A stretch of DNA of 64,000 nt, from NCBI GenBank assembly GCA_964601935.1, contig CAZROP010000001.1, forward strand, positions 185,867 through 249,866, read 5' to 3'. Positions 7,563 through 56,639 of this stretch are shown piece by piece (within the stretch, counting starts at the first letter, position 1; the number at the start of each line of letters is the position of its first letter). This DNA is from an uncultured Candidatus Saccharibacteria bacterium. GTDB taxonomy: Bacteria > Patescibacteriota > Minisyncoccia > Phycocordibacterales > UBA1006. The translations under genes and the position numbers were made by a program. Under the pieces are notes generated by a model. The model worked only from the letters and a program-made list of their open reading frames with translations, did no database searches and had not been told where the DNA came from.

Positions 7563-8072
7563 TTATTCAGAGACCTGCGACTCTCTATATACATTATAAG
7601 CCTCTACTAGCATCTCCCTCTTCTGGACTTCGTCAGGCCCTGCCAGAGCCTGCTGTATCATGCCCCAGACACTATGCAGCACTACTAGGGCTTCTTTTAT
7701 TTCTATAGCTAATTGTTCCTCCGTATCACCAGAAGCTATATATTGTTCAAATTCGGATATCTTTTCTTGTACGTCTTCTATAAACAACTGCATTTTTAGA
7801 GCAACGAATGCATCTTCTTTGTTATCAAATGTAGTTCTTTCACTATGTTTCGCTGTTTGAAACTGAAAGCGCATAGGATGCAGGTCACGCACATCAATCG
7901 GGCGCCAGCTATCATCCTGAAAATCCAGCCGCCATATCAAACCATCTGCATCTCCAAAGAATGCCTGTGTATCCGAAAAATACAACAATGCGACTTCTCC
8001 ATCCAGTAAACTCTCACATAAAGATGTGTCAAAAGGCACTATTTCGTTACTACCAGGTGTAGATTCGGTCAT
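7563..8072 (-). CDS. hypothetical protein
   Basis: 169-aa acidic ORF with no recognised motif. Confidence 0.45.
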   Translation of the reverse strand: MTESTPGSNEIVPFDTSLCESLLDGEVALLYFSDTQAFFGDADGLIWRLDFQDDSWRPIDVRDLHPMRFQFQTAKHSERTTFDNKEDAFVALKMQLFIEDVQEKISEFEQYIASGDTEEQLAIEIKEALVVLHSVWGMIQQALAGPDEVQKREMLVEAYNVYRESQVSE

Positions 8073-13369: not shown

Positions 13370-13801
13370 CTATTCTGCTGATTCTGCCAGAGCCAATTCT
13401 GCCTCTGCTGCTAATTCCTTTTTAGATTTGGTATCAGCAACAAATGATACGAAATTGCGCATTTTGCGACGAATTTCGCGAGCAACCTTGGTACGGATGT
13501 AGTACAGTTTGCTACGGCGTACTACAGAACGCTTTACGACAGTGAATGATTCAATAGTTGTAGAATAGAGAGGAAATACACGCTCTACTCCGACACCATG
13601 TGAAATCTTGCGAACCGTGATGGTTGCGCCTGCCTCGCGGCCATGTTTGCGAGCTATGATAATACCTTCGAACGCCTGAAGACGGAAATTACCTCCTTTT
13701 TCTGGTACTTTTACCTGTACGCGAACAGTATCGCCCACACGAATATCCAGAGAAGCGCGCGCCTGTACTGATTCTGGCAAGTGAGTAATACTCGATGTCA
13801 T
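13370..13801 (-). CDS. rplS: 50S ribosomal protein L19 with a C-terminal extension
   Basis: 143 aa with [59 protein letters not shown]. Confidence 0.95.
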
Positions 13802-14062
13802 ATAGGACCAAAACTACCACAGAACAGGCGGTAATGCAAGAAATCTACGATGAACCCTGGAACTAATCAAATACCCTCTTCGCAAGAAAAGTGAGAAGTT
13901 TTTATAGGAAAACTTGCATACTTTCGAGAAAAGCGGCTCGCTCCGGTGCAGGCGAGAATGTGTGGGTTTTGATTAGCTCCGGGGTTTAAATTCGTAATAA
14001 ACGAGAGTATTATCGACCAATACAATTCTATACTGTTACTGTCCTATGATATACTACGCATT

Positions 14063-14635
14063 ATGATAGGATTTATTGCTGGCACCGTCCATTTTGTGCA
14101 TCCACGGATCAAATTGATAACTATTCTGACTACTGCTGGTATCGGCTACAACGTGCATGTACCCAATCAGGAATTCTATACCATAGGTGACTATGTCGAG
14201 CTGTATACCATCACCATAGTCCGTGAGGACGTACTCGACCTATATGGATTCGCATCCACCGAGGAGCGCGAGTTATGCGAACTCCTGATGAGTGTCAGTG
14301 GTGTTGGGCCCAAAACAGCTCTGAATATTACCAATAGCACTACCCCATCCCTGCTGGTTGATGCATTACGGACCAAAAATAGCACATTTATAGCAACACT
14401 GCCCGGTATCGGCAAAAAAAGCGCAGAAAAAATGATTATAGAATTACATGACAAGGTAAAGAACCTATCGTTCGAAGCAACAACATCGACCGTTCATAAT
14501 GATTTAATAGAAACACTGCTAGCAATGGGATATCAGCCGCGCGTTATCACAGAAACCATATCAGCACATGTATTCACAACAGAAACCCTCCAGGATCGTA
14601 TTCGTGAAGCCTTGGGCCTACTACAGAGAAATTAG
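14063..14635 (+). CDS. ruvA: Holliday junction DNA helicase subunit RuvA
   Basis: 190 aa. It has an MIGFIAGTV... N-terminal OB domain and HhH motifs SVSGVGPKTALNI and LPGIGKKSAEKMIIEL. Confidence 0.9.
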   Translation: MIGFIAGTVHFVHPRIKLITILTTAGIGYNVHVPNQEFYTIGDYVELYTITIVREDVLDLYGFASTEERELCELLMSVSGVGPKTALNITNSTTPSLLVDALRTKNSTFIATLPGIGKKSAEKMIIELHDKVKNLSFEATTSTVHNDLIETLLAMGYQPRVITETISAHVFTTETLQDRIREALGLLQRN

Positions 14636-14677
14636 CGAGATATTGGGTGGAATATACACTCTAATCTGAATAGACTA

Positions 14678-14974
14678 TTATCTTTGGTCCCCAATGTATG
14701 TATATGCAACTCTTTCTTCCATATTTCTAGTAAAGACCGTGACCTCAATACGTTTATATGAATTACCTTCATATATATCAATACTCTCCAAGGTGTTATC
14801 ATCGACTTCAGCCAGATAGCCACATACAATATCATAAGGATTTCCAGTATGAACCAACGAGATATAATGATAGTTAGTTGTTGTTATAGGGCTTTTACGG
14901 ATAACACATTTCCATCCGCGGACAAAAACACTCTGAATGGGTGTAATTTTAATCTTTGAAGAATCCAAAATCAA
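14678..14974 (-). CDS. gamma-glutamylcyclotransferase (AIG2/GGACT)-like protein, N-terminally short or truncated
   Basis: 98 aa. GYLAEVDDNTLESIDIYEGNSYKRIEVTV matches the family core, but the usual N-terminal YGTL motif is absent. Confidence 0.4.
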   Translation of the reverse strand: MILDSSKIKITPIQSVFVRGWKCVIRKSPITTTNYHYISLVHTGNPYDIVCGYLAEVDDNTLESIDIYEGNSYKRIEVTVFTRNMEERVAYTYIGDQR

Positions 14975-15010
14975 ACTACCCTAGGTAAATAAGTACATAT
15001 AACCAAGAAG

Positions 15011-16270
15011 CTACTCCAACCATTTTAACGTACCAGCAATGTCGTGTACCACCTCTGTCAATTCGGTACGCATTTTACATGCATAACCACCAGATTCTAT
15101 AGATTTAGGACTTATCACAATACGATACGGCATACCCATCAAATCTGCATCAGCCAGCTTCTGCCCTGCTCCTGCGTCACGATCATCTAGAATATAATCG
15201 ATAGCCATACTACGAAGATTATCTGTCAAAAGAGCTGTGTATTCTAATACACTCTCGTCCTCTGACATAAGTGCAACAATATGCACTGTATAAGGCGCAA
15301 TAGCACGTGGCCATACTAGTCCTTTATCATCAGACAGCAGTTCAGCAATAGCGCCGACGAGGCGGCTGACACCGATACCGTAACAACCCGCTATTATTGA
15401 CTGTTTTTCACCTTTTTCATCCGTGTAGTAGACATTCAGAGCATCAGTAAATCTACTCTCCAAAGGAAAGATATTTCCCACCTCGATAGCACGCTCTTCG
15501 GTTAATTCATCTGCTTTCCATCCTAATTTTTCAAGTATCTCATCATTGTATACCTCTTTGTTGATAGCACGACCGCTCGGGTGTACATAGATAGTATCTT
15601 CTCCAACAGGAGATAGTGTTTGATATTCATCACTAAAGCGTGTAGTAAATATTCCACCATCTGCATAGGTACGAATAGTTTTATCACCAATACCCAGACG
15701 ATTATATACACGTGTATATGCTGCAGCGATTAATTCATACAATTCCTCGTGCTCTTCCTGAGTACGTGAGAATGAATACATGTCCTTCATAACAAACTCA
15801 CGTCCGCGCAAGATTCCACTTTTGGCACGTAATTCATTGCGAAACTTGTTTTGAATCTGATACACCGAAAATGGTAAATCACGGTACGATGATACGTAAC
15901 TACTGATTGCGTCTACAATAGGTTCTTCATGGGTCAGCCCCATTCCCAACTCTGTACCATTGTTCAGCGTTGTTTTGAACCAATTATCTACCTTTGTGTC
16001 GTCCCATCGATCGGTAAGCTCAAAGATATCCTTTGACAACAATGTCGTCATGAATAATTCCTGGCCACCCACAGCGTTCATCTCTTCGCGGATTATAGTT
16101 TTTATCTTTTCCAGCACACGAAATCCGAGCGGCAGAAAAGCATATACCCCAGCAAGAACCTTGTGAATATACCCAGCACGTATCAATAATTGAGCGTTTC
16201 TGGATTGTTCATCTGCGGGAACCTCTTTGCGGGTTTTTGTGAATAATTGGGACATGCGGATATGACTCAT
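15011..16270 (-). CDS. proS: prolyl-tRNA synthetase (short form without the INS editing domain)
   Basis: 419 aa. It has MSQLFTKTRKEVPADEQSRNAQLLIRAGYI..., class II motifs (FRNELRAKSGILRGREF, GCYGIGVSRL) and a C-terminal anticodon-binding domain. Confidence 0.92.
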   Translation of the reverse strand: MSHIRMSQLFTKTRKEVPADEQSRNAQLLIRAGYIHKVLAGVYAFLPLGFRVLEKIKTIIREEMNAVGGQELFMTTLLSKDIFELTDRWDDTKVDNWFKTTLNNGTELGMGLTHEEPIVDAISSYVSSYRDLPFSVYQIQNKFRNELRAKSGILRGREFVMKDMYSFSRTQEEHEELYELIAAAYTRVYNRLGIGDKTIRTYADGGIFTTRFSDEYQTLSPVGEDTIYVHPSGRAINKEVYNDEILEKLGWKADELTEERAIEVGNIFPLESRFTDALNVYYTDEKGEKQSIIAGCYGIGVSRLVGAIAELLSDDKGLVWPRAIAPYTVHIVALMSEDESVLEYTALLTDNLRSMAIDYILDDRDAGAGQKLADADLMGMPYRIVISPKSIESGGYACKMRTELTEVVHDIAGTLKWLE

Positions 16271-20595: not shown

Positions 20596-20680
20596 CGGAG
20601 ATGGCGGGATTCGAACCCGCGAGGGGTTGCCCCCTGCTACCTTTCCAAGGTAGTGCACTCGACCACTATGCGACATCTCC
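20596..20680 (-). tRNA. tRNA-Ser (anticodon GGA), class II
   Basis: Minus-strand fold: acceptor ggagatg/catctcc, anticodon stem ctacc/ggtag with loop ttGGAaa, long variable arm, T arm gcggg-ttcgaat-cccgc. Confidence 0.9.
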
Positions 20681-20727: not shown

Positions 20728-23700
20728 TTACGCTGCTTCTTGTAATTCTTCTCTTCCTTGCTCATTCAATGGAACAACTTTTGTACCGCTAGTTCTTTTA
20801 CGAGATAAAAAGTCTTTGAAATCTCTACCATTTTTTATTCGATCGACATGACTCTTTATCTGTTCATTAGTAGTACTCATTGATTCTACAACTTCTGGAG
20901 TAGTACTATTCTCCCGACCACGAGCTCTTCTTGCCAGCTGAGCTTGTATTTGCTCTGTAGTAGGACTTTTATTTTCTCTTGGTTTAGCATTTTCTATCCT
21001 TCTGCTCTGCCAAGAAGCTGTGGCTCTTTTTAGTGCAGGAGTAACGAATGCAGTACTTTGAAGCTGACCCTCCTCTTCTTTAGGTTTATCAAACACGCCA
21101 TCCCAGAAACTATCCCATCTATGTTCCTGTGTAAGGGTTTGAGATTCTGCGACGGGGGCTACATTTGCTTCTATTACACTTGATGTAGCAGAGGTTTGAT
21201 TGGTTTCTTCACCTGCAATAGGGGTATCAAACCCAAAGAATGAGGAATCATAACTCTGATTAGTAGTATTATTAATCGTCTGAGAGTTATTATCTTCAGC
21301 TTGCAGCCTATTACCTTGATTAGTATTATTAAGCTGTTCTCTATTATTTTCACCATCTCGAGCAAGAGAACGATCTCTCTGTAGAGTCCGCCTCTCATCA
21401 TTATCAGGCGTACGGCCTGGTTCTTGGTCTGGGTGTTTTTCCTTGTAGTCATCTGTCGGCCCCATAAATCGCTGGGCATGTATAGGTTGCACATGTATAT
21501 CAGTATCATATACATTAGGTGCTTCGTAGTCTATATCAAGGATTGGTTGATTCGAAAAGTTCTCACCCTGTATACGAGCCAACGAGCGTACATTGTACGG
21601 CATAGTATCTGAACCATCTCCCTCTAATACTTCTACTGCCAGTATCTGCCCTTTCAATTCGAATTTTCCATCTTCAGTCACATGAAGGAATTCAGAGTTA
21701 ACACCAGTATTCGGAATAAATGCCTTACCATTTTTATCAAATTCTATAAATACAGCACCTTTGTTACCGATACTATCACTTGTTACTAATTTTTCGCTTC
21801 CCTCGTAGAGCATTAACTTTATTTTTCCTTTTCCTACCATTTCTTTTATTTGATCTCCTGTCAGTTTATTACTACCAAATGTTGACTCATCGTTAAACAT
21901 GTCTGCAATCGACATTTCGTATCCCTTCACATTTCCATCAGCATCCCATATTACACCTGATCCATTTGGTCCTCCCCATTTTAGATCCAATTCATTGCGC
22001 GCAAATTCTTTGGTATCATAATCATAATAATTGTCCATTCGAACAGATTTGAATTCAGCTGGACGCTCTGCTCCATTATAAGAATCAAAATATGAACCTG
22101 GGACAGGTGTCTCTGTTATCGTGAATCCTTTCCCTGCTAATGCTTTCTGTATATCGTCCTGACCTATTACACCATCACCTGCGGCATCTGGTATAGAAAT
22201 GTTTACGCCATTCGGTCCTGTTAGTGCAACACCATTTCCCTGCTGCTCCAGACAGAACCCATCCGGTAGACGCACATCTGCAGATACCTTGCCATCTATA
22301 CCCTGGATGATAGAACTGTGAGACATGGTAGTCGTGCCTCCGCCTGTTATCAGATTTTTTAACTGCATCAGGAGTGTTGCCTTTTTCTCGGAATCTCGTT
22401 CTGTGAACCAACTTTCTACCAAACCCATCGTAGAATCATCTATCAATGCCCATATTTCAGCAGTTGCAATACCGAATGCAAATGATAGTGCAAATACGGC
22501 TGAACCTGTTATCGCTGCCTCTTTTGCGAGCATTGATTTCACCCCCCTCTTATGTTTAGAAATACTTTCTATCAACTCCTTTCTAGTTTTTGAAATCTCA
22601 GGATTTTCACGTGCATTTTGTAGAGCATTATTAAATTCATTACCAAGTTCTTTTTTTAATCCTGCACGTAGACGTGCCATTAGAACAGCAATTTCACGAT
22701 GTTGTGCTTCTACCTGACCCGGATCATACTGAATTAATTCTACCTTTTTAATATTACCTGACTTTATAAGATCTTCATAACGGATCAATAATTCCAGTTT
22801 TGATTCTAGGGGATACTCCTGACCAGCACGTAATTCGCTGATAATAGATTGTGCTGGTTGCAAATCCATGCTAAATTTTTCAAACTTTGCAGCAACTTTA
22901 TCATTACTATAGGTTTCTCCTGCAGCAGTGTTCTGGTAATACTGCTGTGCCTCGGTGGTTCTACGATTATACTGCGCTGATCCTGCGAATGCTCCACCTA
23001 TAACTGAACCTACGACTGGCACAGCTAATGTTGCTTCTGCTGCCTTTTTCGAAACTATTTTTGCGACTGATGCCGCAGCACCCGCGAGGACAGCCAGCGT
23101 TGTTCCATTAAACACTCTTGTGACTTTTATTTTTTCACACCATCTACCAAATCTACCTTTGTATTTCGATGATAACGAATGTTCTGCAATCGCTATTTTC
23201 AGAGAAATATGAAGTTCGTTTATATATCTAGCTTTCTCATCAGCGCTCAAACCCTCAAATAGAGACTTGACTTCTCTGCAGACCACAAAGAAATTATGAG
23301 CAGTTATTGTTTCCTGACCACCTCCTTGGATTCTGCGTAGTGTATCGAGCTGCTGATTTACTAACTCCTGATACGTAATTGTTTGACCTGTGGGTACTTC
23401 TGATCTGAAACTATCGATATCTTCCTGAGATTTCAGAAATTCTATCAAAAATGTTCTGAGATTTTCTGATACCTGTGCCTGTCGAGTTTCATTATTATCT
23501 ACATTATAGACCTTTTCACCTGCGCTCAAGATACTATCGTCACCACTAATCACACGATCAGCTGCTGATTCGTACAGTGCACGTGTTCTTGCCTCGCCAT
23601 CATCCTCACCCAAAAACACATTACGCTGTTCTGCTGTTTCCCGTAGTGCAGCAACACGGTGTTTTGCCTGTCGATACTCATGAACTATTGCATTTTTAGC

Positions 23701-23871
23701 TCTTGTGAACTGTCGTGCGATCCAGTTCTTTTTTTCTGCTGACTGTTCCTGAGCCCCTAATCGTTCTGCTGCCAATTTACGAGCATACTGTCGTTGAATA
23801 TCAGTCACATCAGCAATACCTACATTAACTTCTGTAGGTATTTCTTCAAAACTTGTTTCTCTGAGCAACAT
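20728..23871 (-). CDS. giant membrane protein of unknown function (coiled-coil N-terminus, two Gly/Ala-rich TM anchors, extracytoplasmic domain, Q/N/T-rich tail)
   Basis: 1047-aa uninterrupted ORF. The TM segments are TLAVLAGAAASVAKIV...LAVPVVGSVIGGAFAGSA and ITGSAVFALSFAFGIATAEIWALI. Confidence 0.7.
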   Translation of the reverse strand: MLLRETSFEEIPTEVNVGIADVTDIQRQYARKLAAERLGAQEQSAEKKNWIARQFTRAKNAIVHEYRQAKHRVAALRETAEQRNVFLGEDDGEARTRALYESAADRVISGDDSILSAGEKVYNVDNNETRQAQVSENLRTFLIEFLKSQEDIDSFRSEVPTGQTITYQELVNQQLDTLRRIQGGGQETITAHNFFVVCREVKSLFEGLSADEKARYINELHISLKIAIAEHSLSSKYKGRFGRWCEKIKVTRVFNGTTLAVLAGAAASVAKIVSKKAAEATLAVPVVGSVIGGAFAGSAQYNRRTTEAQQYYQNTAAGETYSNDKVAAKFEKFSMDLQPAQSIISELRAGQEYPLESKLELLIRYEDLIKSGNIKKVELIQYDPGQVEAQHREIAVLMARLRAGLKKELGNEFNNALQNARENPEISKTRKELIESISKHKRGVKSMLAKEAAITGSAVFALSFAFGIATAEIWALIDDSTMGLVESWFTERDSEKKATLLMQLKNLITGGGTTTMSHSSIIQGIDGKVSADVRLPDGFCLEQQGNGVALTGPNGVNISIPDAAGDGVIGQDDIQKALAGKGFTITETPVPGSYFDSYNGAERPAEFKSVRMDNYYDYDTKEFARNELDLKWGGPNGSGVIWDADGNVKGYEMSIADMFNDESTFGSNKLTGDQIKEMVGKGKIKLMLYEGSEKLVTSDSIGNKGAVFIEFDKNGKAFIPNTGVNSEFLHVTEDGKFELKGQILAVEVLEGDGSDTMPYNVRSLARIQGENFSNQPILDIDYEAPNVYDTDIHVQPIHAQRFMGPTDDYKEKHPDQEPGRTPDNDERRTLQRDRSLARDGENNREQLNNTNQGNRLQAEDNNSQTINNTTNQSYDSSFFGFDTPIAGEETNQTSATSSVIEANVAPVAESQTLTQEHRWDSFWDGVFDKPKEEEGQLQSTAFVTPALKRATASWQSRRIENAKPRENKSPTTEQIQAQLARRARGRENSTTPEVVESMSTTNEQIKSHVDRIKNGRDFKDFLSRKRTSGTKVVPLNEQGREELQEAA

Positions 23872-30590: not shown

Positions 30591-33305
30591 CTAGGGTGCG
30601 CACAGGGTGTTCGCTCTATCACGAGTTAGGCTATCCCAAATACCAGGAGGCTCCTCTAGTCCGCGCGGCTGCATAATAGTGGTGTAGTTCTGTAGTTGGA
30701 AATCTTTTACTGCTTCTTCGGTTTTGGATTCAAAAGTGCCGGTGACTTCTATACTATAGCCTTGTTGTACTAGAAAGAGTTGTACTCGCTGGATCTCTGA
30801 AGTGTCAGTGCTATCACGGGTGAGTTCAGTGATAAATGGTGCCGAGCATGCCGATACGGACTGTTCGCCCAGGGCGACCTGTTCTATTGTCGATACGCGG
30901 GGTTCTGTATCGGGGATATCCAATTCCTGTAGCCCGGTACGCACTCGTACATCATTGAGGACTTTATTTGCTTTACCTCGACTGAATTTGAAGAAGTTGC
31001 CAGTAGCGTGACCTACTCCAGCCTGGATCAGAATATCGCTGTCGTTGTTCTGATAGGTGTTCACGGCCTGGGTAGTTTCAGGTCCGAAGTATCCATTCAC
31101 CTCGAGATCAGTGCCAAGATAGTAGTTGAGGAATTCTTGAATACGTTTTACTTCTTCAGGATAAGTTGGTCCGAGGTTCTGGTTCATGTCTTTGAGAAAT
31201 AGATACTCTTCCAGAGATTGTGGTAGCGGTTTGTTTGTGTTGAATGGGGATGTCTCTATCGTTTCTTTTGTTATAGAAGGCTGATTTTTTGATACCTCTT
31301 TGATACTTTCTTTTGTAGTTGTCGTTTTTATCGTGGTGTTCGTAGTCAGAGAAGGTACAGTAGTTGGTGTTTTTTCTGCTGTTGAACTTACCGCGGTGGT
31401 ACTTGATTTTGAAAGAGGATTGTAAGTATCTACGGAAGTAGCCAAAGCCAATCGAATCGAACCTCTGTCGAGAGCGGTACCTTGTGATAATGAATCGGAC
31501 AGAGTTCTGCTGTCTGTTATGAGTACACCGTCCATTGATCCGAGGATTGGTAGATTAAATGCATCAGAACTTTCCGGTATAAATCCTGTACTACCTGATG
31601 CTAATAATAGTAGGAGTGTAGCAATAGTCGCCTTTTTGACATGTTTTTTTGCTACCTGATGACGTACTTTTTTGTGAATCTGTTTATGTACCGGTATCGA
31701 TTTGTTTTCTGGTTTGCTACTGCTGAATAGTGCTTGTATGAGAGCTATTACAATAGTACTACCTAGTACTATTGCTCCTATGGATGCAAGGAGGAAGAGT
31801 AATTGGTTGATAGAGATATCAGTATACATATAGTAGGTCACTATTCGTGTATACATAACGTATCCACCGAGTGCGATACACCCTATCAGACCTATAAATA
31901 TAGTGAATAATAGGAAATTACTTGTAGGTTTTGTAGTATGTACCGATGTTGTGATTCGTTTCATACGCATAACGGTTGGTGTCCGCGTATCTTTGTGCTT
32001 CATAGATGCATACTGCCCCCATAATGTGCCCAGCATATAGAATAACCCTCCTATCATCAATGTGAATCCTATATCAGATAAAATATCTCCTGTTAGTGAC
32101 CAGGTATAGGGCAGCTTTTCGATTACATGTGCAGAAGAAGCACTGTACGCCTGAACATTTTGTACAAAGGGTACCACTAATGCTACAACAAATAAAACAT
32201 AGTTTGCGATATGGAGAGCCGCTGTTTCAGGGGATCGTGTGCTTCCTTTGTGTGCTTTATGATGGAGTAGTGTAGCAATACAGAGCACTGCCAAGAATCC
32301 TAGTGTTATAGGTAATAACTCATAAGTTTCTATAAATGTTCGTAGAGAGGTTTTCCAGTCTACGTTTTGCAGCGAACGTGTTTGTATAGCGTTTTCTTCT
32401 TCTGGTGTTGTTATGACTTTGGTGCCGAGTGCCAGACGTAATGGCTCTGTACTCTGTGTGTAATAATGATCGCCTGCTGGTGTGATAATAGTGGTAATGG
32501 ATGTTTCAGTATTAGGTAATAGAGATGCTAATACATCAGGAGTCAGTGATGCCATACGAAGCCTGTGCCCAGATAGGTTACTCGATTCAGAAATATATTG
32601 AACGGTTTCTCTATTTGCAGTAAAAGGAGTAATTTCTGATAGTGAAGGTAGCTCACCATTCTGTAGTGCATACGCGGAAGCAGGTATAAATACTAATGTA
32701 CATACTGCAACAGCAACTAATTTATACCAAGAGTTGGATAACTGCATTAATACTTGTGCAGTATTTTTGAATAGAGAGAAATCTTGTGAATACTTTAGGG
32801 GTCTACGTCTGTCAGGTTCTCCATCATCAAGACACAAGCCATCCTGTGGGCTCGATGAGCTGGAAACACATACTGCACGCTCTCCTGAATAGGAAGATGG
32901 TGTTGCAGATGTATTTCCGGTAGAAGCTATAAGGTATGGAGACTGGATATATGTTGATGTAGATACTGTGCGACCACTGCGTGTTGCAGTTTTTGGTGCT
33001 GTTGCATAAACATGACTGCGTTCCTGTCGGATACGACTAGAAAGAGTACGTGGAGATTTCGATGTGATAGTTGTACGAGAATCCATCAGAGAACTTTGTG
33101 TTTGCGCACGCTGCGATACTGCGCGCTTGAACTCACCAGAAATATCTTTCTTTTGTGCAGTAACCGTTGTGGCGCGATTCCATACCTGTACAATCGGTGA
33201 CGGAGTTGCAGCGTGTGTGAACTTCTGTGTCTTTGATCGTGCACGAGAAGTACGTACGGACGACTGGGTGTTCATATGAACATGAGAGAGAGTTGATGTG
33301 CTCAT
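30591..33305 (-). CDS. large polytopic membrane protein with two C-terminal peptidoglycan-binding (PG_binding_1-like) domains
   Basis: 904 aa with a Ser/Thr-rich N-terminus and ~8 TM spans. The C-terminal repeats are IQEFLNYYLGTDLEVNGYFGPETTQAVNTYQ and VQLFLVQQGYSIEVTGTFESKTEEAVKDFQ. Confidence 0.65.
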   Translation of the reverse strand: MSTSTLSHVHMNTQSSVRTSRARSKTQKFTHAATPSPIVQVWNRATTVTAQKKDISGEFKRAVSQRAQTQSSLMDSRTTITSKSPRTLSSRIRQERSHVYATAPKTATRSGRTVSTSTYIQSPYLIASTGNTSATPSSYSGERAVCVSSSSSPQDGLCLDDGEPDRRRPLKYSQDFSLFKNTAQVLMQLSNSWYKLVAVAVCTLVFIPASAYALQNGELPSLSEITPFTANRETVQYISESSNLSGHRLRMASLTPDVLASLLPNTETSITTIITPAGDHYYTQSTEPLRLALGTKVITTPEEENAIQTRSLQNVDWKTSLRTFIETYELLPITLGFLAVLCIATLLHHKAHKGSTRSPETAALHIANYVLFVVALVVPFVQNVQAYSASSAHVIEKLPYTWSLTGDILSDIGFTLMIGGLFYMLGTLWGQYASMKHKDTRTPTVMRMKRITTSVHTTKPTSNFLLFTIFIGLIGCIALGGYVMYTRIVTYYMYTDISINQLLFLLASIGAIVLGSTIVIALIQALFSSSKPENKSIPVHKQIHKKVRHQVAKKHVKKATIATLLLLLASGSTGFIPESSDAFNLPILGSMDGVLITDSRTLSDSLSQGTALDRGSIRLALATSVDTYNPLSKSSTTAVSSTAEKTPTTVPSLTTNTTIKTTTTKESIKEVSKNQPSITKETIETSPFNTNKPLPQSLEEYLFLKDMNQNLGPTYPEEVKRIQEFLNYYLGTDLEVNGYFGPETTQAVNTYQNNDSDILIQAGVGHATGNFFKFSRGKANKVLNDVRVRTGLQELDIPDTEPRVSTIEQVALGEQSVSACSAPFITELTRDSTDTSEIQRVQLFLVQQGYSIEVTGTFESKTEEAVKDFQLQNYTTIMQPRGLEEPPGIWDSLTRDRANTLCAP

Positions 33306-36511: not shown

Positions 36512-37012
36512 TTATGGACATTTCACAGTCGCAGGTGTTCCAGCAGCAGCAGCAATAGTTACTACACTGGATGAAGCAGCAATCTGTTTGTTGGATCCTG
36601 CTGAGTCAGCACACCATGCAGTACTACCTGCACCACTCTTCAATAATGTGACCGCAGCCCAAGAAACTGAGTTACTAGAACATGCAGTTGCCACTGTTGT
36701 TGATGTTGAAACGGCAGCACCTGCTGTACTTGCAGCTACTGTTGTCGCAGGTAAGTAGGCCTGTCCTGCTGCCAACACTCCATCATATGTCTTACTTGTA
36801 GTAGCACATACAGTTTGATAACCTGTTGTTGTTTCATCGTAAATAACTTCTGCCGAAGCTCTCACATTAGATATATTACCCTTGATCGCAGCATCAGCAC
36901 CTTTCACACGCGCACTGTTTACTGAACCAATCACTACTGTTGCAAGAACACCAATGATGGCAATAACCACGAGAAGCTCTATCAGAGTAAAACCTCGTAA
37001 TTTTATACTCAT
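36512..37012 (-). CDS. type IV pilin / pseudopilin-like protein (paralog 1)
   Basis: 166 aa with the class III signal MSIKLRG|FTLIELLVVIAIIGVLA. The C-terminal IAAAAGTPATVKCP is shared by all three paralogs. Confidence 0.9.
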   Translation of the reverse strand: MSIKLRGFTLIELLVVIAIIGVLATVVIGSVNSARVKGADAAIKGNISNVRASAEVIYDETTTGYQTVCATTSKTYDGVLAAGQAYLPATTVAASTAGAAVSTSTTVATACSSNSVSWAAVTLLKSGAGSTAWCADSAGSNKQIAASSSVVTIAAAAGTPATVKCP

Positions 37013-37253: not shown

Positions 37254-37760
37254 CTATGGACATTTCACAGTAGCTGGCGTCCCAGCTGCCGCGGCAATAG
37301 ATACTGTATAAGCTGTGGTCAGTGTAATCTGCTCATTAGACCCCGATGAATCAGCGCACCATGCTGTTAACCCTGCTGTTCCTCGTAGTGGTACCGCTGC
37401 AACCCAAGAAATCCCATTACTAACACATACACCCAGTGTTGTTGGTGCGCCAGTATTAGTTGCAGTACCGCTTGTATTGGCGGTTACTGTCGCGTCAGAT
37501 CTGTGTACCTTTGCTGCCGCTAATACCCCTTCATATGTCTTACTTGTAGTAGCACATACAGTTTGATAACCTGTTGTTGTTTCATCGTAAATAACTTCTG
37601 CCGAAGCTCTCACATTAGATATATTACCCTTGATCGCAGCATCAGCACCTTTCACACGCGCACTGTTTACTGAACCAATCACTACTGTTGCAAGAACACC
37701 AATGATGGCAATAACCACGAGAAGCTCTATCAGAGTAAAACCTCGTAATTTTATACTCAT
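37254..37760 (-). CDS. type IV pilin / pseudopilin-like protein (paralog 2)
   Basis: 168 aa. The first 76 residues are identical to paralog 1. Confidence 0.9.
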   Translation of the reverse strand: MSIKLRGFTLIELLVVIAIIGVLATVVIGSVNSARVKGADAAIKGNISNVRASAEVIYDETTTGYQTVCATTSKTYEGVLAAAKVHRSDATVTANTSGTATNTGAPTTLGVCVSNGISWVAAVPLRGTAGLTAWCADSSGSNEQITLTTAYTVSIAAAAGTPATVKCP

Positions 37761-37933: not shown

Positions 37934-38431
37934 TTATGGACATTTCACGGTAGGAGGCGTCCCAGCTGCGGCGGCGATGGTTACACTACCAACAACGGCA
38001 GGTACTGATTTGTTAGACCCCGATGAATCAGCGCACCATGCAGTCGAATAGTTTGCTCCTTTGAGAGGAGAAACAGCAGCCCATGATACTCCATTACTAA
38101 CGCAAACAGCTAATATCCCTGATGCCGTATTTGCTGCTGCACCAGTTGTGTTGGATGCTACGGTTATAGTAGATCCGTGTACTTTCGCTGCGGCGAGAAC
38201 ACCTTCGTATCCTTTGCTGGTAGTAGCACATACACTCGTGTAATTACCTGTTTCATCATAAATAGTTTCTGCTGTAGTGCGTACATTCGATATATTCCCC
38301 TTGATAGCTGCGTCTGCTGCTTTTACTCTTGCACTGTTTACTGAACCAATCACTACTGTTGCAAGAACACCAATGATGGCAATAACCACGAGAAGCTCTA
38401 TCAGAGTAAAACCTCGTAATTTTATAATCAT
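37934..38431 (-). CDS. type IV pilin / pseudopilin-like protein (paralog 3)
   Basis: 165 aa with MIIKLRG|FTLIELLVVIAIIGVLATVVIGSVNSARVK. Confidence 0.9.
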   Translation of the reverse strand: MIIKLRGFTLIELLVVIAIIGVLATVVIGSVNSARVKAADAAIKGNISNVRTTAETIYDETGNYTSVCATTSKGYEGVLAAAKVHGSTITVASNTTGAAANTASGILAVCVSNGVSWAAVSPLKGANYSTAWCADSSGSNKSVPAVVGSVTIAAAAGTPPTVKCP

Positions 38432-49064: not shown

Positions 49065-50576
49065 TTAGGAGACACGGTGTTTTTGTCGTAACAGGGCTAT
49101 TTCTTCTGCCTCGCGAATTTCGCGCTCTCGTTTCCCTGCTTCACCGAGGTTTTTCAGTTCGCTGTCGGATAGATTTTGTAGTTCCGTCACACGTGTACCC
49201 AGATATTCACGTGTATTACGAGTATCGTCATCCAAGACCTCTTCTAGGAGCGTGTTCAGTATCCATCCCAGACGTGGCCCTGGGTTCACATGAAACTCGT
49301 TCATCAGATCGTTGCCGTTCAGCGCCAGCATGGTGACCGACAGTGGACTGCGCAGTGCCTCCTCTATCATTGCCTCATATTTACGTAGTCGATAGGGTTC
49401 TGCGTCCTTTTTGCCCATTCCTATGCGATCGCTGCGCCGTACACGCATGAGATCCCATATCAAATCCTCACCTACGTTGACTATCATACGGCGTACGGCA
49501 GATAGTGTGATAGTTTCTGTATCCGAAAAGAACATATGATATCGGACAAGCTTCTCTACTTTGTCCGATAGATCTCGAGGATATTTCATGCGCTCCATTA
49601 TTTTGCGTACCATTTTGGCGCCAATAACCTCGTGTCCATAAAATGTCCATATTCCAGCCTGTTCATCGCGTCTACGGCTGCGTGGTTTTCCTATATCGTG
49701 GAATAGCGCAGCCAGGCACACGTGCAGCGGCCATTCCTGCCATACCGCATTCTGACAGGCATTCAAATTATGAGTAAATACATCATAGATATGGCTTCGG
49801 GATTGCTCGCAACCATGGCCTTCTAGCAATTCAGGGAGAATAATGGCGAGCAATCCAGTTTCATGTGCAACCTCTATCCCCTTTTTGGGCTCCGCAGACA
49901 TAACCATTTTGGTGAATTCATCACGAATACGTTCTATAGAGACGGTCTTTGTTTCGTCCATGAGTTGTTTCATAGCGTATGCGGTCTCTGGTTCAATGGT
50001 AAATCCGAGCTGGGCTGAAAATCGTATCGCTCGCATAATTCGTAATGGGTCTTCTGAAAAACGCTCAAACGGACTGCCTATGGTGCGAATAGTCTTGGAT
50101 AATATGTCAGAAACTCCGCCTGTATTGTCGTGTAACAGATGTTTCACTGTGTCATACACTAATGCATTCATCGTAAAGTCTCGCCGAGAGAGATCATCCA
50201 TCAGATTGGTACTAAAAGACACATTATCAGGATGACGTTTATCGCTATACTCTGACTCTGTCCTGTATGGAGTTGCATGAATTTCGCGTAGTCCGGACGA
50301 CTGTTCGTTATCAGGGAATATAAAAGACACAGTACCAAAGGGGTTTTCGTATACGACACGAATACTAGAAGATTCTGCTACAGCTATCATCTGATCGGGT
50401 GTGGCAGAGGTGGTGATATCCCAGTCGTGAGGATCACGATTCATCAGCAGGTCGCGCACGCAGCCACCAACGAGAAATGCCTCGTGTCCATTAGATTGTA
50501 GTAATTCTATAACACGTGCTGGTTCTGTAGGGATATCGAATTGAATTGCAACCGAATTGGTATCAGGAGTAGTCAT
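49065..50576 (-). CDS. cca: CCA-adding enzyme / tRNA nucleotidyltransferase with an HD domain
   Basis: 503 aa with LVGGCVRDLLMNRDPHDWDITT, RRDFTMNAL and the HD motif LFHDIGK. A hairpin (49053-49080) overlaps the stop codon. Confidence 0.9.
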   Translation of the reverse strand: MTTPDTNSVAIQFDIPTEPARVIELLQSNGHEAFLVGGCVRDLLMNRDPHDWDITTSATPDQMIAVAESSSIRVVYENPFGTVSFIFPDNEQSSGLREIHATPYRTESEYSDKRHPDNVSFSTNLMDDLSRRDFTMNALVYDTVKHLLHDNTGGVSDILSKTIRTIGSPFERFSEDPLRIMRAIRFSAQLGFTIEPETAYAMKQLMDETKTVSIERIRDEFTKMVMSAEPKKGIEVAHETGLLAIILPELLEGHGCEQSRSHIYDVFTHNLNACQNAVWQEWPLHVCLAALFHDIGKPRSRRRDEQAGIWTFYGHEVIGAKMVRKIMERMKYPRDLSDKVEKLVRYHMFFSDTETITLSAVRRMIVNVGEDLIWDLMRVRRSDRIGMGKKDAEPYRLRKYEAMIEEALRSPLSVTMLALNGNDLMNEFHVNPGPRLGWILNTLLEEVLDDDTRNTREYLGTRVTELQNLSDSELKNLGEAGKREREIREAEEIALLRQKHRVS

Positions 50577-50732: not shown

Positions 50733-52802
50733 ATGAGTGAACGCACGCCCGGAGAAGAAATCCTAGAAAACGCCGAGAATACTCCAGAAAGATTAATAAA
50801 TGCTCATATATTGAACGATATAGAGTTACAGTATGCATTACAGTTATTCCCTGTAGAAACTCTAGAATCTGTGCAAGAGAAAAGTCACGAAAAGATAGTA
50901 GATGAGCGAGTAACAATGCTGAACCGTTCGTGCATGTATGACGAGGTCAAGCCAGGAGAGGAGGGTATGCATCGACCAGAGCGTGCATATACTCCATTTT
51001 CGAAACTACGGTTCATAGCACCTCCTACTGAAGAGGTTGCAAATGAACTGCGATCACTGGGGGTGGTTCATGTGAAACAGTCTCTCGAGGCAACGAGACA
51101 GGCCCAAGATCTAGCACAATTTACCGAAATGGTCGAATGGTACGAAACACAAGAGCAGGCAAAACAGGAATGTTTAGAAGTTCTTCGTTCTTTACAAGAG
51201 AGCGCACAAGATGATTTACATGAGCTGGCTTTGCTCTTTCAGAAGATAGAGACTTCTTCTTCGGAGGCTGGTCACATGAATTACGAGCACGCGCAGAAAT
51301 GGGCGTACCAACTACTGATGGGAGGGCCTCTCACGAACAGTGTACAGTCGAGCGGAGGAGGACTGCGCGATACCTTCGAGGCATACATTTCTAATGTAGA
51401 GAACCTAAGGCAGCCGGCATACTACACCGATTTGTTGGTTGAAATACAAAATCACCAACGTGCTATAGAAATACTGAAGAGTTTGCCAGCGGCTACAGAC
51501 CCAGGATTGCAGGAGAAGTATAGAATCTGGCGGCAGATGAATACTCTTTTCAGAGGAGATGTAGAGGATAAGGTCTATACGTTCATGACCGAACAGGTAG
51601 GATATAATCAGACAAAACAGGGTATCCACATCCACAATCGTGTACCCAAAAGCTATCAACCTACACGTGGTCAGTATTCTCCTAAATACGGGTACAATGA
51701 TGCAAAGAATAAGCAACAAGAACTAATGCCTCGGGTGGAGCTTGCTCTGGAGAGCGCAACTCGATTCGTCGATACGACAGTCGCTCGTGCGCAGATGGAG
51801 TACGAAGTACTGCATCTGCCCGCGACAGAAACAAAATACGTTTCACCTGATGACGCGGCGAAGTATCTGAAACACGAGAAAGACAAGCGAGTAATAGAAG
51901 CACGAAAAGCAGCTGAGTTATTAGGTCGTAGACCAGAGACGTTTGCGCGGACTGTGGTTGATGCGGGGAACTTTACAGGAGAAGTCAGCTTTACTCTGAG
52001 GCCAAGAGATATGTTACCTGATATACATGCTGAGATACAAGAGCTAGAGAGACAAATCGTGGATTTGGGGATCGAGATAGGTAAATTGACGAAATCGGCT
52101 GATTCCATGAAAGATTCATTGGAAAAGGGTAGGGCGTATGATAGTTCGTCTAAACTTTATAAATTGGTTGTGTCACCTCCTATTGTTAACACAACCTGGA
52201 CTGAGCATGGCAACAAGCTTGATGATATAAAAAACTTAACATCAAAAAAGACAGACATAGAGCAAAATCTCGAGGTATTGCAAGCAGAATTAGAAACACA
52301 ATCACGACACCAATCTAATATATCGTTTGACTGGGAAAATGAGTGTATAAATATGATTACTAGAGGTGAATACCTGGGTTATGATATGAAACAGGGCGAA
52401 GTATCGGATATAGGGGCAGATTTTGATGTGGTGGCGTTCAAAAGATCACTATATAATCGTCTGTCTGGTGGTAGTAAGTCTATTTCAGAATTAGAACTGC
52501 GTAATTTGCAGAATGATATTGTTACATTCCTAGGCTTGGTATCCCGATGGGGGTTGTCGCCTGCAGAACAAACAGCATTAGACCATTATGATTCTGTGTT
52601 GCAGCGAGTCAGTAAAGGCGAATCGCGTACTCCAGAATGGTTACAGGGCGTGCCATTTGATGCGAAACAGGTGTACGAACATGCACTCGATGTTGTAATG
52701 CCTGCACAGGAAGCAGCTTTGGGTGTTGTAGATGGAAATGTATCTGTTGAAGTAGTGGCTGACGCGTATATGCGGTTGTACGGCGATAATAATGAAAAGT
52801 AA
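50733..52802 (+). CDS. large soluble hypothetical protein (coiled-coil-rich ORFan)
   Basis: 689-aa uninterrupted ORF with no TM segment and no recognised motif. It has its own terminator at 52825-52861. Confidence 0.55.
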   Translation: MSERTPGEEILENAENTPERLINAHILNDIELQYALQLFPVETLESVQEKSHEKIVDERVTMLNRSCMYDEVKPGEEGMHRPERAYTPFSKLRFIAPPTEEVANELRSLGVVHVKQSLEATRQAQDLAQFTEMVEWYETQEQAKQECLEVLRSLQESAQDDLHELALLFQKIETSSSEAGHMNYEHAQKWAYQLLMGGPLTNSVQSSGGGLRDTFEAYISNVENLRQPAYYTDLLVEIQNHQRAIEILKSLPAATDPGLQEKYRIWRQMNTLFRGDVEDKVYTFMTEQVGYNQTKQGIHIHNRVPKSYQPTRGQYSPKYGYNDAKNKQQELMPRVELALESATRFVDTTVARAQMEYEVLHLPATETKYVSPDDAAKYLKHEKDKRVIEARKAAELLGRRPETFARTVVDAGNFTGEVSFTLRPRDMLPDIHAEIQELERQIVDLGIEIGKLTKSADSMKDSLEKGRAYDSSSKLYKLVVSPPIVNTTWTEHGNKLDDIKNLTSKKTDIEQNLEVLQAELETQSRHQSNISFDWENECINMITRGEYLGYDMKQGEVSDIGADFDVVAFKRSLYNRLSGGSKSISELELRNLQNDIVTFLGLVSRWGLSPAEQTALDHYDSVLQRVSKGESRTPEWLQGVPFDAKQVYEHALDVVMPAQEAALGVVDGNVSVEVVADAYMRLYGDNNEK

Positions 52803-52824
52803 GTTTGCAGTCTTTAGCAAGACA

Positions 52825-52861
52825 GAACAAAACCCGCTGCCAAGGGCAGCGGGTTTTGTTC
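52825..52861 (+). terminator. intrinsic terminator after the 689-aa gene
   Basis: gaacaaaacccgctgcc / aag / ggcagcgggttttgttc forms a perfect 17-bp stem. Confidence 0.8.
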
Positions 52862-52968
52862 TACGTGAAACCTGTATCGGTGTCATAGTACAGTGGATAA
52901 TGCCTGAAATTACAAGCAATTGATTGATATACTGGGTTAGACATCGGTATGCGCCGATCTTGTAGTGT

Positions 52969-55047
52969 ATGACATCACCAGAAAATACTGTTCCACAAAG
53001 AGATCCGATTCCAGGTGTAGGACATCCGGACGGGCTTTTGCCTGAGGAACAGGATTGGTGGAACGCACTACAGCGAGAAAAAGCGTCTCTAGCGCAAAAT
53101 GAGGGTATGGTATTGTCGCCTGTGATAGCACAATCTTCGCGTAGTTGGGATTCAGTTCAGATCCCGAAAGGTCGTAGAGAAGGCGGGCGATCTGCATCTA
53201 CTCTCGAAACATTGCGAACCAAAGGGGTTCATTCAGGCTCTGCGCTGGAACAAAAGATCTTAAATTCAGTTAGCGCTCCTACGAGTCCTATTACCTGGGA
53301 AGCAGTTGTTGCGACAAGAGCTCGATTAACTCCTCGATTAGAACAGGCTTTGGCAGCAGCAGATCCGCACCTGGCGTATGTATACGAGAGGTCACTGTCT
53401 CGTTCAGCCGCGAATATTACCTCGAACGATACATCAGCACGAACTGCAAAAATCATACCAATAGGCCAACCTCTAGGGGTAAGTTTGCGTGAGGCGGCGC
53501 TTGTAGATGACCAGGATGGTATCGAGATGCCTCAGATGCAGATTGCTTCGGTAGCAGCATCTGCCGATGTACCCGATGTAGAAACAGTCGGCGAGCCTGT
53601 TGCACCAGCGGCAGTAGCACCAGAGGTACATTCTGATGAGCCTATTTCTCTGCAGGAATTGGTTGATAGGGTAAACAGAAATGTATCAACTGTACAGGAG
53701 TCTCTGGATCTTGCAATAGAGCCTGTTGCACCAGCAATAGAAGAAGACCATAACTGGGCAGAACAGGTGCATCTATCAACTGAACGGTATTCTAGTACAC
53801 TAGAATCTGCGTACAATGAAGCATATTTGAATCTTCATAGAGGGGCGCATTGCAGTTGGTTATCGAATTCTACACATAGAGAAACATTACTCAATCAGGA
53901 GTGTCAGATAGCGCGTCGTGAATTGGTACTGGCTCTCGTGAATCAACGCCGGCAGCAGAATAACGGCGTACTCAGTCGTGCTGACCTGATTCAGATAGAA
54001 CAGAGCGTGGTACAGCAAGAGCGTATCACATTGGATACTCTTGGACAGCAGTATGCGCAACACGCAGACATGCGCATGGTTCGTAATGTTCCAGAATTGG
54101 CAAATATTGCGCGTGCTCGCGGTGCAGCAGTGATGGAACGAGGCAGACAAGGTGTCACACGTGTAACAGGTATGTTGTCGAGATTATGGACTAGAACTGC
54201 AGGGCAGAGTGATACCGTACAGAGAGCACAAGAATCCATGACGGCACACAGTCGTCGCGTGCGCGGTTGGGTGGATAGGCGATTGGGATCAGAGCGAGTT
54301 GCACAGATGCAGCATGTAGCGGTGCGTATTGCTGTACCTACTGTATTTACCATTGCTACGGGTGGAGCACTGCTGCCGGTGATAGCAGGTGCAACAGTGG
54401 CTACGGCTACGGGTGCTGGTATTGATGCCGGATATCGTGCAGTCACTAGGTCGCAGAATCGTGCCGACCAGAGCATACCCATTGCTCCTGAAAATGTAGA
54501 CGCAATGTTAGTTGATGCGCAACAGGAAGCGGCAATTAGGAATCGGGAGCGACGTATTGCGCGCTGGGTGTCTACCATTACATCCTCTCTCGTGGGAATA
54601 GTAACAGGGCATTGGACAGCAGATGCGATGCAGGCTCACACTAATACGCCAACATCTGGGCCTGCACCGAAACCAACGCAGCCTATTATCGAAAAACCAC
54701 CCATCCCATTTATAGAACACACTGTTGCTATTCAAAATGGGTCAGGCGAAGGGTTTACTCAGGCGGTTAATCGCTTATTATCAGTGACGCCAACAGATCA
54801 AGTGCCAGCATTGATTACTGACTTCGCACGAGTACATAATGTACCTATCGTTAACGGTCATTATCAGATGACTCCAGAACAGGCGCGAGCGTTTGCCGAA
54901 CAGGTACGTGCAATCGATACATTCGGTCGTTCAATCATTATGCAGCCGGGTGATACAGTAGGATTCGATGCGGAAGGACAGCTGGTACATACACATGCAG
55001 GAGTGAGCCGCGCAGTAACAGGCGCATTACGCGGGAAATGGATGTAG
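52969..55047 (+). CDS. large membrane protein of unknown function (same architecture as the 1047-aa protein)
   Basis: 692 aa. It has RRVRGWVDRRL, a Gly/Ala-rich TM hairpin (IAVPTVFTIATGGALLPVIAGATVATATGAGIDAG), a second TM (WVSTITSSLVGIVTGHW) and a C-terminal domain. Confidence 0.65.
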   Translation: MTSPENTVPQRDPIPGVGHPDGLLPEEQDWWNALQREKASLAQNEGMVLSPVIAQSSRSWDSVQIPKGRREGGRSASTLETLRTKGVHSGSALEQKILNSVSAPTSPITWEAVVATRARLTPRLEQALAAADPHLAYVYERSLSRSAANITSNDTSARTAKIIPIGQPLGVSLREAALVDDQDGIEMPQMQIASVAASADVPDVETVGEPVAPAAVAPEVHSDEPISLQELVDRVNRNVSTVQESLDLAIEPVAPAIEEDHNWAEQVHLSTERYSSTLESAYNEAYLNLHRGAHCSWLSNSTHRETLLNQECQIARRELVLALVNQRRQQNNGVLSRADLIQIEQSVVQQERITLDTLGQQYAQHADMRMVRNVPELANIARARGAAVMERGRQGVTRVTGMLSRLWTRTAGQSDTVQRAQESMTAHSRRVRGWVDRRLGSERVAQMQHVAVRIAVPTVFTIATGGALLPVIAGATVATATGAGIDAGYRAVTRSQNRADQSIPIAPENVDAMLVDAQQEAAIRNRERRIARWVSTITSSLVGIVTGHWTADAMQAHTNTPTSGPAPKPTQPIIEKPPIPFIEHTVAIQNGSGEGFTQAVNRLLSVTPTDQVPALITDFARVHNVPIVNGHYQMTPEQARAFAEQVRAIDTFGRSIIMQPGDTVGFDAEGQLVHTHAGVSRAVTGALRGKWM

Positions 55048-55095
55048 GGTGTAATTCTTGCTCTTGAATCTAGTTGGGTATGATATACTAATTCT

Positions 55096-55419
55096 ATGAC
55101 AAATTTGCATGACATTACTAGTGCGTTCGCGCAGGTGTACGGATTCGATCCTGTCGATACCAGTGATAACGGTGCAGGATTGACAGGACAGCTGCTGGTG
55201 ACGTTGATGGAGCGTTTAGTAGCACGATCATACAGCTATCTAGGTGTTGACGATCAACGCATACTGGATGATATGCTGGACGCTGATGCAGAACCGGATG
55301 CTGTGATTGGATTTTTGTCGCAGCGTATTCCTGTATTTGCACAAGTAGTAATGGAGATTATCACAGAGATGAAGAACTCTATAGATGAAGTAGAGAAGAT
55401 TGCAGAGAGTGTAGTATAA
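55096..55419 (+). CDS. small acidic helical protein, partner of the 692-aa protein (DUF5663-like from memory)
   Basis: 107 aa. LMERLVARSYSYLGVDDQRILDDMLDADAEPDAVIGFLSQRIPVFAQVVMEIITEM aligns by eye with 23886..24233. Confidence 0.55.
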   Translation: MTNLHDITSAFAQVYGFDPVDTSDNGAGLTGQLLVTLMERLVARSYSYLGVDDQRILDDMLDADAEPDAVIGFLSQRIPVFAQVVMEIITEMKNSIDEVEKIAESVV

Positions 55420-55442: not shown

Positions 55443-55472
55443 AAAAACCACCTGTAGCATCAGGTGGTTTTT
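55443..55472. terminator. bidirectional terminator between the 107-aa gene and cmk
   Basis: aaaaaccacctg / tagcat / caggtggttttt. Confidence 0.8.
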
Positions 55473-55548
55473 TGTAATGATGTTATTGGTAAAAAATAAC
55501 GCCTATCTGGAAAAATTCCAGATAGGCGGCATATACTGTCCTGTACTC

Positions 55549-56568: not shown

Positions 56569-56639
56569 GCGGTCATAGTTTATTGGTAAAACACGTCCTT
56601 GCCAAGGATGAGAGCGGAGTTCGATTCTCCGTGGCCGCA
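56569..56639 (+). tRNA. tRNA-Gly (anticodon GCC)
   Basis: Acceptor gcggtca/tggccgc, D stem gttt/aaac, anticodon stem cgtcc/ggatg with loop ttGCCaa, T arm cggag-ttcgatt-ctccg. A terminator hairpin follows at 56646-56685. Confidence 0.9.

Follow-up and report, generated by a model that had tools for sequence, protein, structure and literature searches.

A conserved pair of genes for a predicted membrane protein and a small acidic protein in three related uncultured Patescibacteria

FtsN and RodZ are bitopic envelope scaffolds, built from a cytoplasmic N-terminus, a transmembrane (TM) segment, a proline-rich linker, and a small C-terminal envelope-binding domain. A comparable layout is predicted for the larger product of a gene pair, in the following called locus B, which lies within 64,000 nucleotides (nt) of DNA from an uncultured Candidatus Saccharibacteria bacterium (GenBank assembly GCA_964601935.1, contig CAZROP010000001.1, positions 185,867 to 249,866). 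This whole stretch is the window, and coordinates refer to it unless another contig is named. The larger gene of locus B encodes a protein of 692 amino acids (aa), B_big, the smaller one a protein of 107 aa, B_small; A_big and A_small are their counterparts at locus A of the same window, to which an earlier reading of this DNA (the original prediction) had likened locus B. With FtsN and RodZ, B_big shares a cytoplasmic part, a membrane anchor, a proline-rich stalk, and a small outside domain, all as predicted; this is a likeness of layout only and not of membership. In contrast to these scaffolds, no SPOR, LysM, DUF4115 or other peptidoglycan-binding domain was detected in B_big, and its predicted plan adds a hydrophobic hairpin, a much larger cytoplasmic part, and what would be a dedicated small partner. 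Our leading, though tentative, interpretation is that locus B constitutes a lineage-restricted two-gene module, in which a partner protein is docked onto an envelope-spanning scaffold.

The gene pair and its relatives

Locus B is a native and real pair, which matches no described family in present libraries, and which has been found so far in three related uncultured Patescibacteria only. It consists of the following genes:

52969 to 55047, plus strand: B_big gene, open reading frame (ORF) of 692 aa, predicted membrane protein
55096 to 55419, plus strand: B_small gene, ORF of 107 aa, acidic protein, all-helical in the model

Both ORFs were found where the original prediction had placed them, separated by a spacer of 48 nt; its label "giant" for B_big is overstated at 692 aa. 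An in-frame TAG at 52963-52965 is the upstream limit of the B_big ORF, and no stop-free extension beyond it is possible. Judged by sequence conservation, the two ORFs are true genes and not chance ORFs, because the pair is conserved in two other organisms. The start codon of B_small is fixed by the N-terminus M-x-NLHDIT, which is common to the orthologues, invariant among the three sequences of the family, and coded with synonymous differences. A 195-aa antisense ORF inside the B_big gene (53991 to 54578, minus strand) is probably no true gene and owes its existence to the Ala/Gly/Arg-rich coding frame.

Searches of Pfam, NCBIfam, PHROGs, and PADLOC gave no match for B_big or B_small; in PADLOC, which covers anti-phage defence, the homologues from the second locus (see below) had no match either. 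Sequence and profile searches of the PDB with both proteins yielded nothing significant, and a profile of the C-terminal domain of B_big found nothing below an E-value (E) of 0.35. No trace of locus B was found in viral contigs, phage records or plasmid records, all of which were scanned.

Relatives are rare. Word-indexed searches of 5.8 billion proteins with B_big and B_small returned the queries only, and when 1.84 billion representative proteins were scanned in full with HMMER, a single relative of B_big came to light. This is P0007, an 839-aa protein encoded on the 423-kilobase metagenome contig L002, and its match is limited to residues 587-674 of B_big (38% identity; phmmer E 7.4e-4 in the library and 6e-12 in the pairwise comparison). 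As in the window, the P0007 gene is located between the genes of the CCA-adding enzyme and cmk, and it is followed by the gene of a 129-aa homologue of B_small (43% identity, tblastn E 7e-26). A third locus, L010, emerged from a scan of metagenomes that started from an alignment of the small proteins; there, the end of a large ORF (a partial copy) encodes the same C-terminal domain and is followed 50 nt later by the gene of a 115-aa orthologue of B_small with 47-51% identity. The order large gene, then small gene, is thus common to all three loci. The small ORF, which the original prediction had expected next to homologues of the large gene, stands directly downstream in each of the three family members, and this claim was not refuted.

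Only two parts are recognisable among the relatives: the small protein over its whole length, and the C-terminal ~110 aa of the large protein, which are 35-40% identical across the three organisms. The ~580 residues that precede this domain in B_big are too diverged for similarity to be detected, except for some weak collinear BLAST matches to P0007 (residues 322-358 and 406-434, E ~0.08 and above); for residues 1-260, no similarity to the L002 orthologue was detectable. An exact-cluster look-up classified B_big, B_small, and A_small as singletons, and the same was true of ribosomal protein L11. Among GTDB species genomes, the nearest relatives of the CCA-adding enzyme (49-54% identity) belong to Saccharibacteria, Paceibacterota, and metagenome-assembled genomes labelled "Patescibacteria group"; a synteny search of these genomes via the enzyme (~50% identity) showed that locus B is absent from them. 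The B_big/B_small family looks confined to a narrow clade.

This distribution bears on the possibility that the two genes are functionally independent neighbours, which are adjacent through the kinship of the three genomes. Such independence, which we consider unlikely but take seriously, agrees with the fact that the CCA-cmk neighbourhood is kept in L002 regardless of the pair, and that more distant Patescibacteria (CCA-adding enzyme ~50% identical) contain neither gene, which leaves no deep co-occurrence signal. Yet the interval is otherwise not conserved, as an upstream gene of 689 aa in the window faces one of 431 aa in L002 and extra genes are found in L002, and the pair has nevertheless stayed together in the same order. 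In addition, no other piece of the CCA-cmk interval is as well conserved between the window and L002 as the small protein (identity 43%) and the C-terminal domain (38%); cmk itself reaches 25%.

The base composition argues for a native origin, as does the lack of matches to phages, plasmids, and defence systems. The original prediction had described the B_big gene as GC-rich, and its GC content of 0.497 indeed exceeds the gene mean of 0.443 (standard deviation 0.040). However, the excess resides in the first and second codon positions (GC1 0.631, GC2 0.488), whereas GC3 is, with a value of 0.372, below the mean of 0.403. The codon-usage distance of the gene to the pooled genes (0.58) is among the smallest. 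The GC excess is due to the Ala/Gly/Arg/Pro-rich composition of the protein and not to a foreign origin, which was rejected because GC3 and codon usage are typical of the window.

Architecture of the two proteins

Along its gene, B_big can be divided into seven parts:

52969 to 53748, plus strand: residues 1-260, rich in Ser, Pro, Ala, and Glu; net charge -16 by composition
53749 to 54303, plus strand: residues 261-445, rich in Arg and Gln (14% Arg), net charge +7, with SRRVRGWVDRRL at the end
54304 to 54426, plus strand: residues 446-486, hydrophobic stretch of 41 residues rich in Gly, Ala, Thr, and Val; Kyte-Doolittle (KD) maximum 1.96
54427 to 54564, plus strand: residues 487-532, loop with 8 Arg or Lys by composition, presumably cytoplasmic
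54565 to 54615, plus strand: residues 533-549, WVSTITSSLVGIVTGHW, weakly hydrophobic (KD 1.28 over a 15-residue window), putative membrane passage
54616 to 54714, plus strand: residues 550-582, linker rich in Pro and Thr, 24% Pro
54715 to 55044, plus strand: residues 583-692, conserved C-terminal domain of ~110 aa

Hydropathy and charge predict B_big to be a protein of the cytoplasmic membrane with its N-terminus inside and its C-terminus outside; it contains no signal peptide. Residues 1-260 are probably cytoplasmic and, by their composition, disordered. The following stretch up to residue 445 is probably helical; for residues 300-445 the isoelectric point (pI) is 11.55, and the motif SRRVRGWVDRRL occupies positions 427-438. 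The hydrophobic stretch 446-486, which contains the small-xxx-small motifs GATVATATG and ATGAGIDAG, is flanked on both sides by Arg-rich sequence and would, according to the positive-inside rule, form a helical hairpin with both ends in the cytoplasm. The sequence RNRERRIAR precedes residues 533-549, and the 16 residues that follow them are free of Lys and Arg. With the positive-inside rule applied to these charge flanks, the predicted order is an inside N-terminus, the hairpin, a cytoplasmic loop, a third TM segment, and an outside C-terminus. In P0007, hydropathy and charge indicate the same succession of segments; the position of the linker is Pro-rich in P0007 and L010 as well, and longer. 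All motifs and TM segments of B_big quoted in the original prediction are present in the translation. The topology that it had claimed (cytoplasmic N-terminus, hairpin, basic loop, TM segment, outside C-terminal domain) is compatible with hydropathy and charge flanks; its weaker point is the segment counted there as the second TM, WVSTITSSLVGIVTG (residues 533-547), which is weakly hydrophobic.

The C-terminal domain carries the motifs IQNG-GFT-A and S-I/V-I/V-M-x-P-x-D-x-I/V-GFD. Its AlphaFold2 (AF2) model, computed from the single sequence, is of low confidence (predicted local distance difference test, pLDDT, 61). Neither the three C-terminal domains nor their consensus matched a Pfam model at E <= 10, including the peptidoglycan-binding families LysM, SPOR, and PG_binding. 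A LysM-like or LytR_C-like reading, which the domain might suggest by eye, was rejected, as it is unsupported by any model and the NGSG motif is not conserved.

B_small was expected to be acidic and helical. It is acidic, with 19 Asp and Glu residues compared with 6 Lys and Arg (net charge -13, pI 4.05), and its single-sequence AF2 model consists of five helices with a mean pLDDT of 83. Besides the N-terminal motif described above, SYL-x-x-DQ-x-ILD is specific to the family. The W-x-G motif, the hallmark of WXG100/Esx proteins, is absent from all three family members. A WXG100/Esx reading of B_small was discarded: the best PDB profile match was EsxA with E 1.2, and the AF2 model contains five helices instead of a two-helix hairpin.

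From these properties, a mode of action can be sketched for the proposed module. The N-terminus of B_big (~445 residues) would extend into the cytoplasm, with an acidic, probably disordered part preceding a very basic helical stretch (pI ~11.5). In the membrane, the Gly/Ala-rich hairpin would be joined by the weak third TM segment, and the small-xxx-small motifs would promote close packing of helices or the formation of oligomers. The proline-rich stalk would display the small conserved domain outside the membrane, and this domain might, with low certainty, bind to some part of the cell envelope or of the host's surface. B_small (pI 4, five helices) would stay in the cytoplasm and could dock on the basic helices near the membrane as an adaptor or regulator; this step is likewise of low certainty.

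The same two conserved pieces call to mind a toxin-immunity-like pair, with the C-terminal domain as a surface effector and B_small as its immunity protein. Indeed, in all three loci conservation extends jointly to the C-terminal domain and to the small acidic protein encoded after it, while the N-terminus varies, a pattern that is not diagnostic on its own. In polymorphic toxins, however, the N-terminus is kept and the C-terminus varies, and this conservation pattern is reversed in B_big. Moreover, neither the whole protein nor the C-terminal domain contains a secretion or trafficking domain or a known toxin domain according to Pfam, NCBIfam, PHROGs, and PADLOC, and the internal membrane segments would hold B_big in the membrane of the producer. 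The domain is near neutral (pI 6.2), and the three-member alignment reveals one invariant His and no catalytic-looking cluster. We therefore regard a toxin-immunity function as very improbable.

Transcription signals and neighbourhood

The following signals were found around the pair:

52824 to 52862, plus strand: hairpin after the 689-aa gene, perfect stem of 18 base pairs (bp), -32.8 kcal/mol, z = -7.9
52904 to 52933, plus strand: promoter-like site of B_big, CTGAAA, 18 nt, TG, TATACT; consensus match only
55084 to 55089, plus strand: -10 box of B_small, TATACT, which ends 6 nt before the ATG
55443 to 55473, both strands: intrinsic terminator, G+C-rich stem of 7 bp (55448-55454 and 55461-55467), flanked by A5 and T6
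55500 to 55528: hairpin of its own belonging to the convergent cmk gene

B_big is probably not co-transcribed with the upstream 689-aa gene, because the stable hairpin at 52824-52862 lies between them. The promoter-like site in front of B_big would give a leader of ~28 nt without a Shine-Dalgarno sequence; the number of such sites in the region is not above shuffle expectation. The geometry in front of the small gene is the same in all three loci (TATACT-aattct-ATG in the window, TATACT-acacat-ATG in L002, TATAAT-aactct-ATG in L010), and a Shine-Dalgarno sequence precedes the small gene in none of them. This -10 geometry suggests that B_small possesses its own promoter and a leaderless messenger RNA (mRNA). 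In this respect B_small is not special, since, as far as can be judged from sequence, mRNAs without a leader seem to prevail in this genome: Shine-Dalgarno sequences are rare throughout the window (3 weak matches among the 49 larger ORFs), and in many genes a TATAAT or TATACT box ends ~6-8 nt before the start codon. Examples are the boxes upstream of 3612 to 4508 (minus strand), 4531 to 5136 (plus), 7563 to 8072 (minus), 14063 to 14635 (plus), 15011 to 16270 (minus), and B_small itself at 55096 to 55419 (plus).

Downstream of B_small, the original prediction had announced a strong bidirectional terminator, which was confirmed: its folding energy is -19.2 kcal/mol on the plus and -17.2 kcal/mol on the minus strand, with z = -5.5 versus shuffles. 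It could act in both directions, because A5 and T6 flank the stem. The consensus terminator scan did not list this element.

These signals return us to the question of whether the two genes cooperate. Functional independence gains from the separate -10 box in front of the small gene, present in each of the three loci, and from the terminator-like hairpin (12527-12571) and the 205 nt that separate the large from the small gene in L002; hairpin and distance also speak for a promoter of the small gene's own. The same L002 spacer contains, just after the hairpin, a perfect palindrome of 58 nt with two 29-nt arms and no spacer (12591-12648), which is absent from the 48-nt spacer of the window; it adds to the case for independence. 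An independently promoted small downstream gene is also typical of immunity genes in polymorphic toxin loci, and B_small would conform to this rule. For the scaffold with a docked partner, which we continue to prefer, the case for a partnership consists of no more than conserved adjacency, co-conservation, and complementary charge. Three points weigh against it. In genomes that are related, and of which two have the wider neighbourhood in common, conserved adjacency is weak evidence of a functional link; B_small is apparently transcribed alone and could act independently; and the third TM segment is weakly hydrophobic (KD 1.28), so that the C-terminus of B_big could be cytoplasmic.

Upstream of the pair, the gene at 50733 to 52802 (plus strand) encodes the 689-aa protein, which is acidic (net charge -34) and free of TM segments; its matches in Pfam, NCBIfam, and PADLOC are sub-threshold and of the coiled-coil type (DUF2680, CENP-F, SMC-related, LmuB). 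At the same position, L002 contains the gene of an unrelated-looking, acidic protein of 431 aa, which abuts the large gene. The idea that the 689-aa gene might belong to the module as a third member was dismissed, as it lacks similarity to the 431-aa gene (E ~0.1) and a strong hairpin stands between it and B_big.

The gene of the CCA-adding enzyme at 49065 to 50576 (minus strand) is 74% identical to L002 5682-7210 at the nucleotide and ~82% at the protein level, although all other shared neighbours are below 50% aa identity, with cmk at 25%. A frameshift near position 6326 divides the CCA-adding enzyme gene of L002 into ORFs of 331 aa and 174 aa. The high similarity could reflect unusual conservation, gene transfer or an assembly error, and estimates of evolutionary rate require caution, as the CCA-adding enzyme is unusually conserved between the window and L002 and cmk is not. 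Between the small gene and cmk, L002 carries at 13524-15734 (plus strand) the gene of an additional Ser/Thr-rich repeat protein of 736 aa, which has a hydrophobic, signal-peptide-like N-terminus and no Pfam match, and which is absent from the window. The CCA-cmk interval looks like a variable region with genes of envelope proteins. The transfer RNA (tRNA) gene adjoining cmk in the window (56569 to 56639, plus strand) is 91% identical to a tRNA gene of L002 (21934-22009), which has the opposite orientation and is located ~5 kilobases beyond cmk.

Elsewhere in the window, three tandem paralogues of ~166 aa are encoded at 36512 to 37012, 37254 to 37760, and 37934 to 38431 (minus strand). A type IV pilin N-terminal methylation motif is present in the one that was scanned; two share identical upstream regions of 40 nt, and GC2 is unusually high (~0.57). 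In a 904-aa protein (30591 to 33305, minus strand), two PG_binding_1 repeats at the C-terminus (6e-14) are the sole recognised domains.

Comparison with locus A and DUF5663

Locus A, which the original prediction had regarded as a parallel of locus B, consists of two genes:

20728 to 23871, minus strand: A_big gene, 1047 aa
23886 to 24233, minus strand: A_small gene, 115 aa, DUF5663 (PF18908) with E 2.9e-8 and 34.6 bits

Directly downstream of the A_big gene, a tRNA gene is located at 20596 to 20680 (minus strand). The score of A_small lies above the PF18908 gathering score of 23.7 bits. A literature search on DUF5663 and PF18908 found no papers, and a word-indexed search with A_small returned the query only.

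The large proteins resemble each other in their predicted general plan, and hydropathy windows and charge counts agree for B_big, P0007, and A_big. According to hydropathy, both begin with a helical N-terminus without signal peptide, which is followed by a Gly/Ala-rich double segment, a charged loop, a TM segment, and a C-terminal part. The loop comprises 150 aa in A_big versus 46 aa in B_big, and the C-terminal part of A_big, with 570 aa, is unrelated to the 110-aa domain of B_big. Sequence comparisons of the two large proteins gave nothing of significance: the best BLASTP match had E 0.21, phmmer reached 0.43-0.44 in a set of 10, and hhalign aligned 24 columns with E 0.24. A hidden Markov model (HMM) of the C-terminal domain of B_big had no match in locus A.

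For the small proteins, the picture is mixed. Members of the B_small family (107-129 aa) and A_small (115 aa) are similar in length and in pI (~4.1), and each adjoins the gene of a large membrane protein. On the other hand, BLASTP found no match between B_small and A_small, and the PF18908 model matched neither the three B_small proteins nor their consensus at E <= 10. Aligning the B_small family with A_small by hhalign gave E-values of 0.0055 and 0.036 with probabilities of 1-7% and an identity of ~18%; these probabilities are low because the profiles hold two or three sequences. With an HMM of the three B_small proteins, A_small was the top match among 2,669 six-frame segments (E 0.51), and its score was reached by 2 out of 5,000 composition-matched shuffles (p ~4e-4). 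Reciprocally, a phmmer search with A_small placed the small protein of L002 first, with E 0.056 among the 2,669 segments and 2e-4 in the set of 10. By every sensitive method, the alignments cover the full domain in the same register. Remote homology of B_small to DUF5663 thus appears possible, a question on which we see the odds as roughly even; membership is not claimed, and B_small differs from DUF5663 in being missed by the Pfam model, in its ~18% identity, in its family-specific motifs, and in the position of its gene, which is downstream and not upstream of the large one. In locus A, the small gene precedes the large one with a gap of 14 nt; in locus B, the large gene comes first, and a separate, conserved -10 box precedes the small one.

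These data allow one to conceive of loci A and B as one ancient class, in which a DUF5663-type helical protein accompanies a polytopic glycine-zipper membrane protein and the large partners have diverged or been swapped. The assignment of A_small to DUF5663, its full-domain and reciprocal matches with the B_small family, and the common order of segments in the large proteins all point in this direction. The silence of the PF18908 model, the low hhalign probabilities and identity, the dissimilarity of the large proteins, and the opposite gene order and transcription layout speak against it. On balance, a common class is rather improbable in our view, and we rank it second among the alternatives to the two-gene module, after functionally independent neighbours and before a toxin-immunity pair. 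A broader speculation, which we hold for quite improbable, is that, throughout Patescibacteria, small acidic DUF5663-like proteins serve polytopic glycine-zipper membrane proteins as dedicated partners on the cytoplasmic side; together they would form undescribed envelope-spanning modules, whose outside domains would evolve fast through contact with host or envelope, and loci A and B would be deeply diverged examples.

Of the proposed parallel between the loci, a generic architecture predicted from hydropathy and charge is left; the large proteins are without sequence or profile similarity, the gene order is reversed, and the similarity of the small proteins is marginal. The original prediction had further posed duplication against independent acquisition as the origin of the two loci, and no evidence was obtained for a recent duplication or for horizontal acquisition in separate events. 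A distant common ancestry of the small partners is the most that can be assumed.

As it stands, locus B is an ordinary orphan pair of a poorly sampled clade of Patescibacteria, with no pointer to a new mechanism or a long-standing question. Patescibacteria genomes are rich in lineage-specific envelope proteins of unknown function, which are thought to underlie the host-attached lifestyle of these organisms. Locus B adds one such family, of which three members are known, with a defined conserved domain predicted to lie outside and a small partner. It also hints at, though it does not demonstrate, a possible cooperation of DUF5663-type proteins with membrane proteins.

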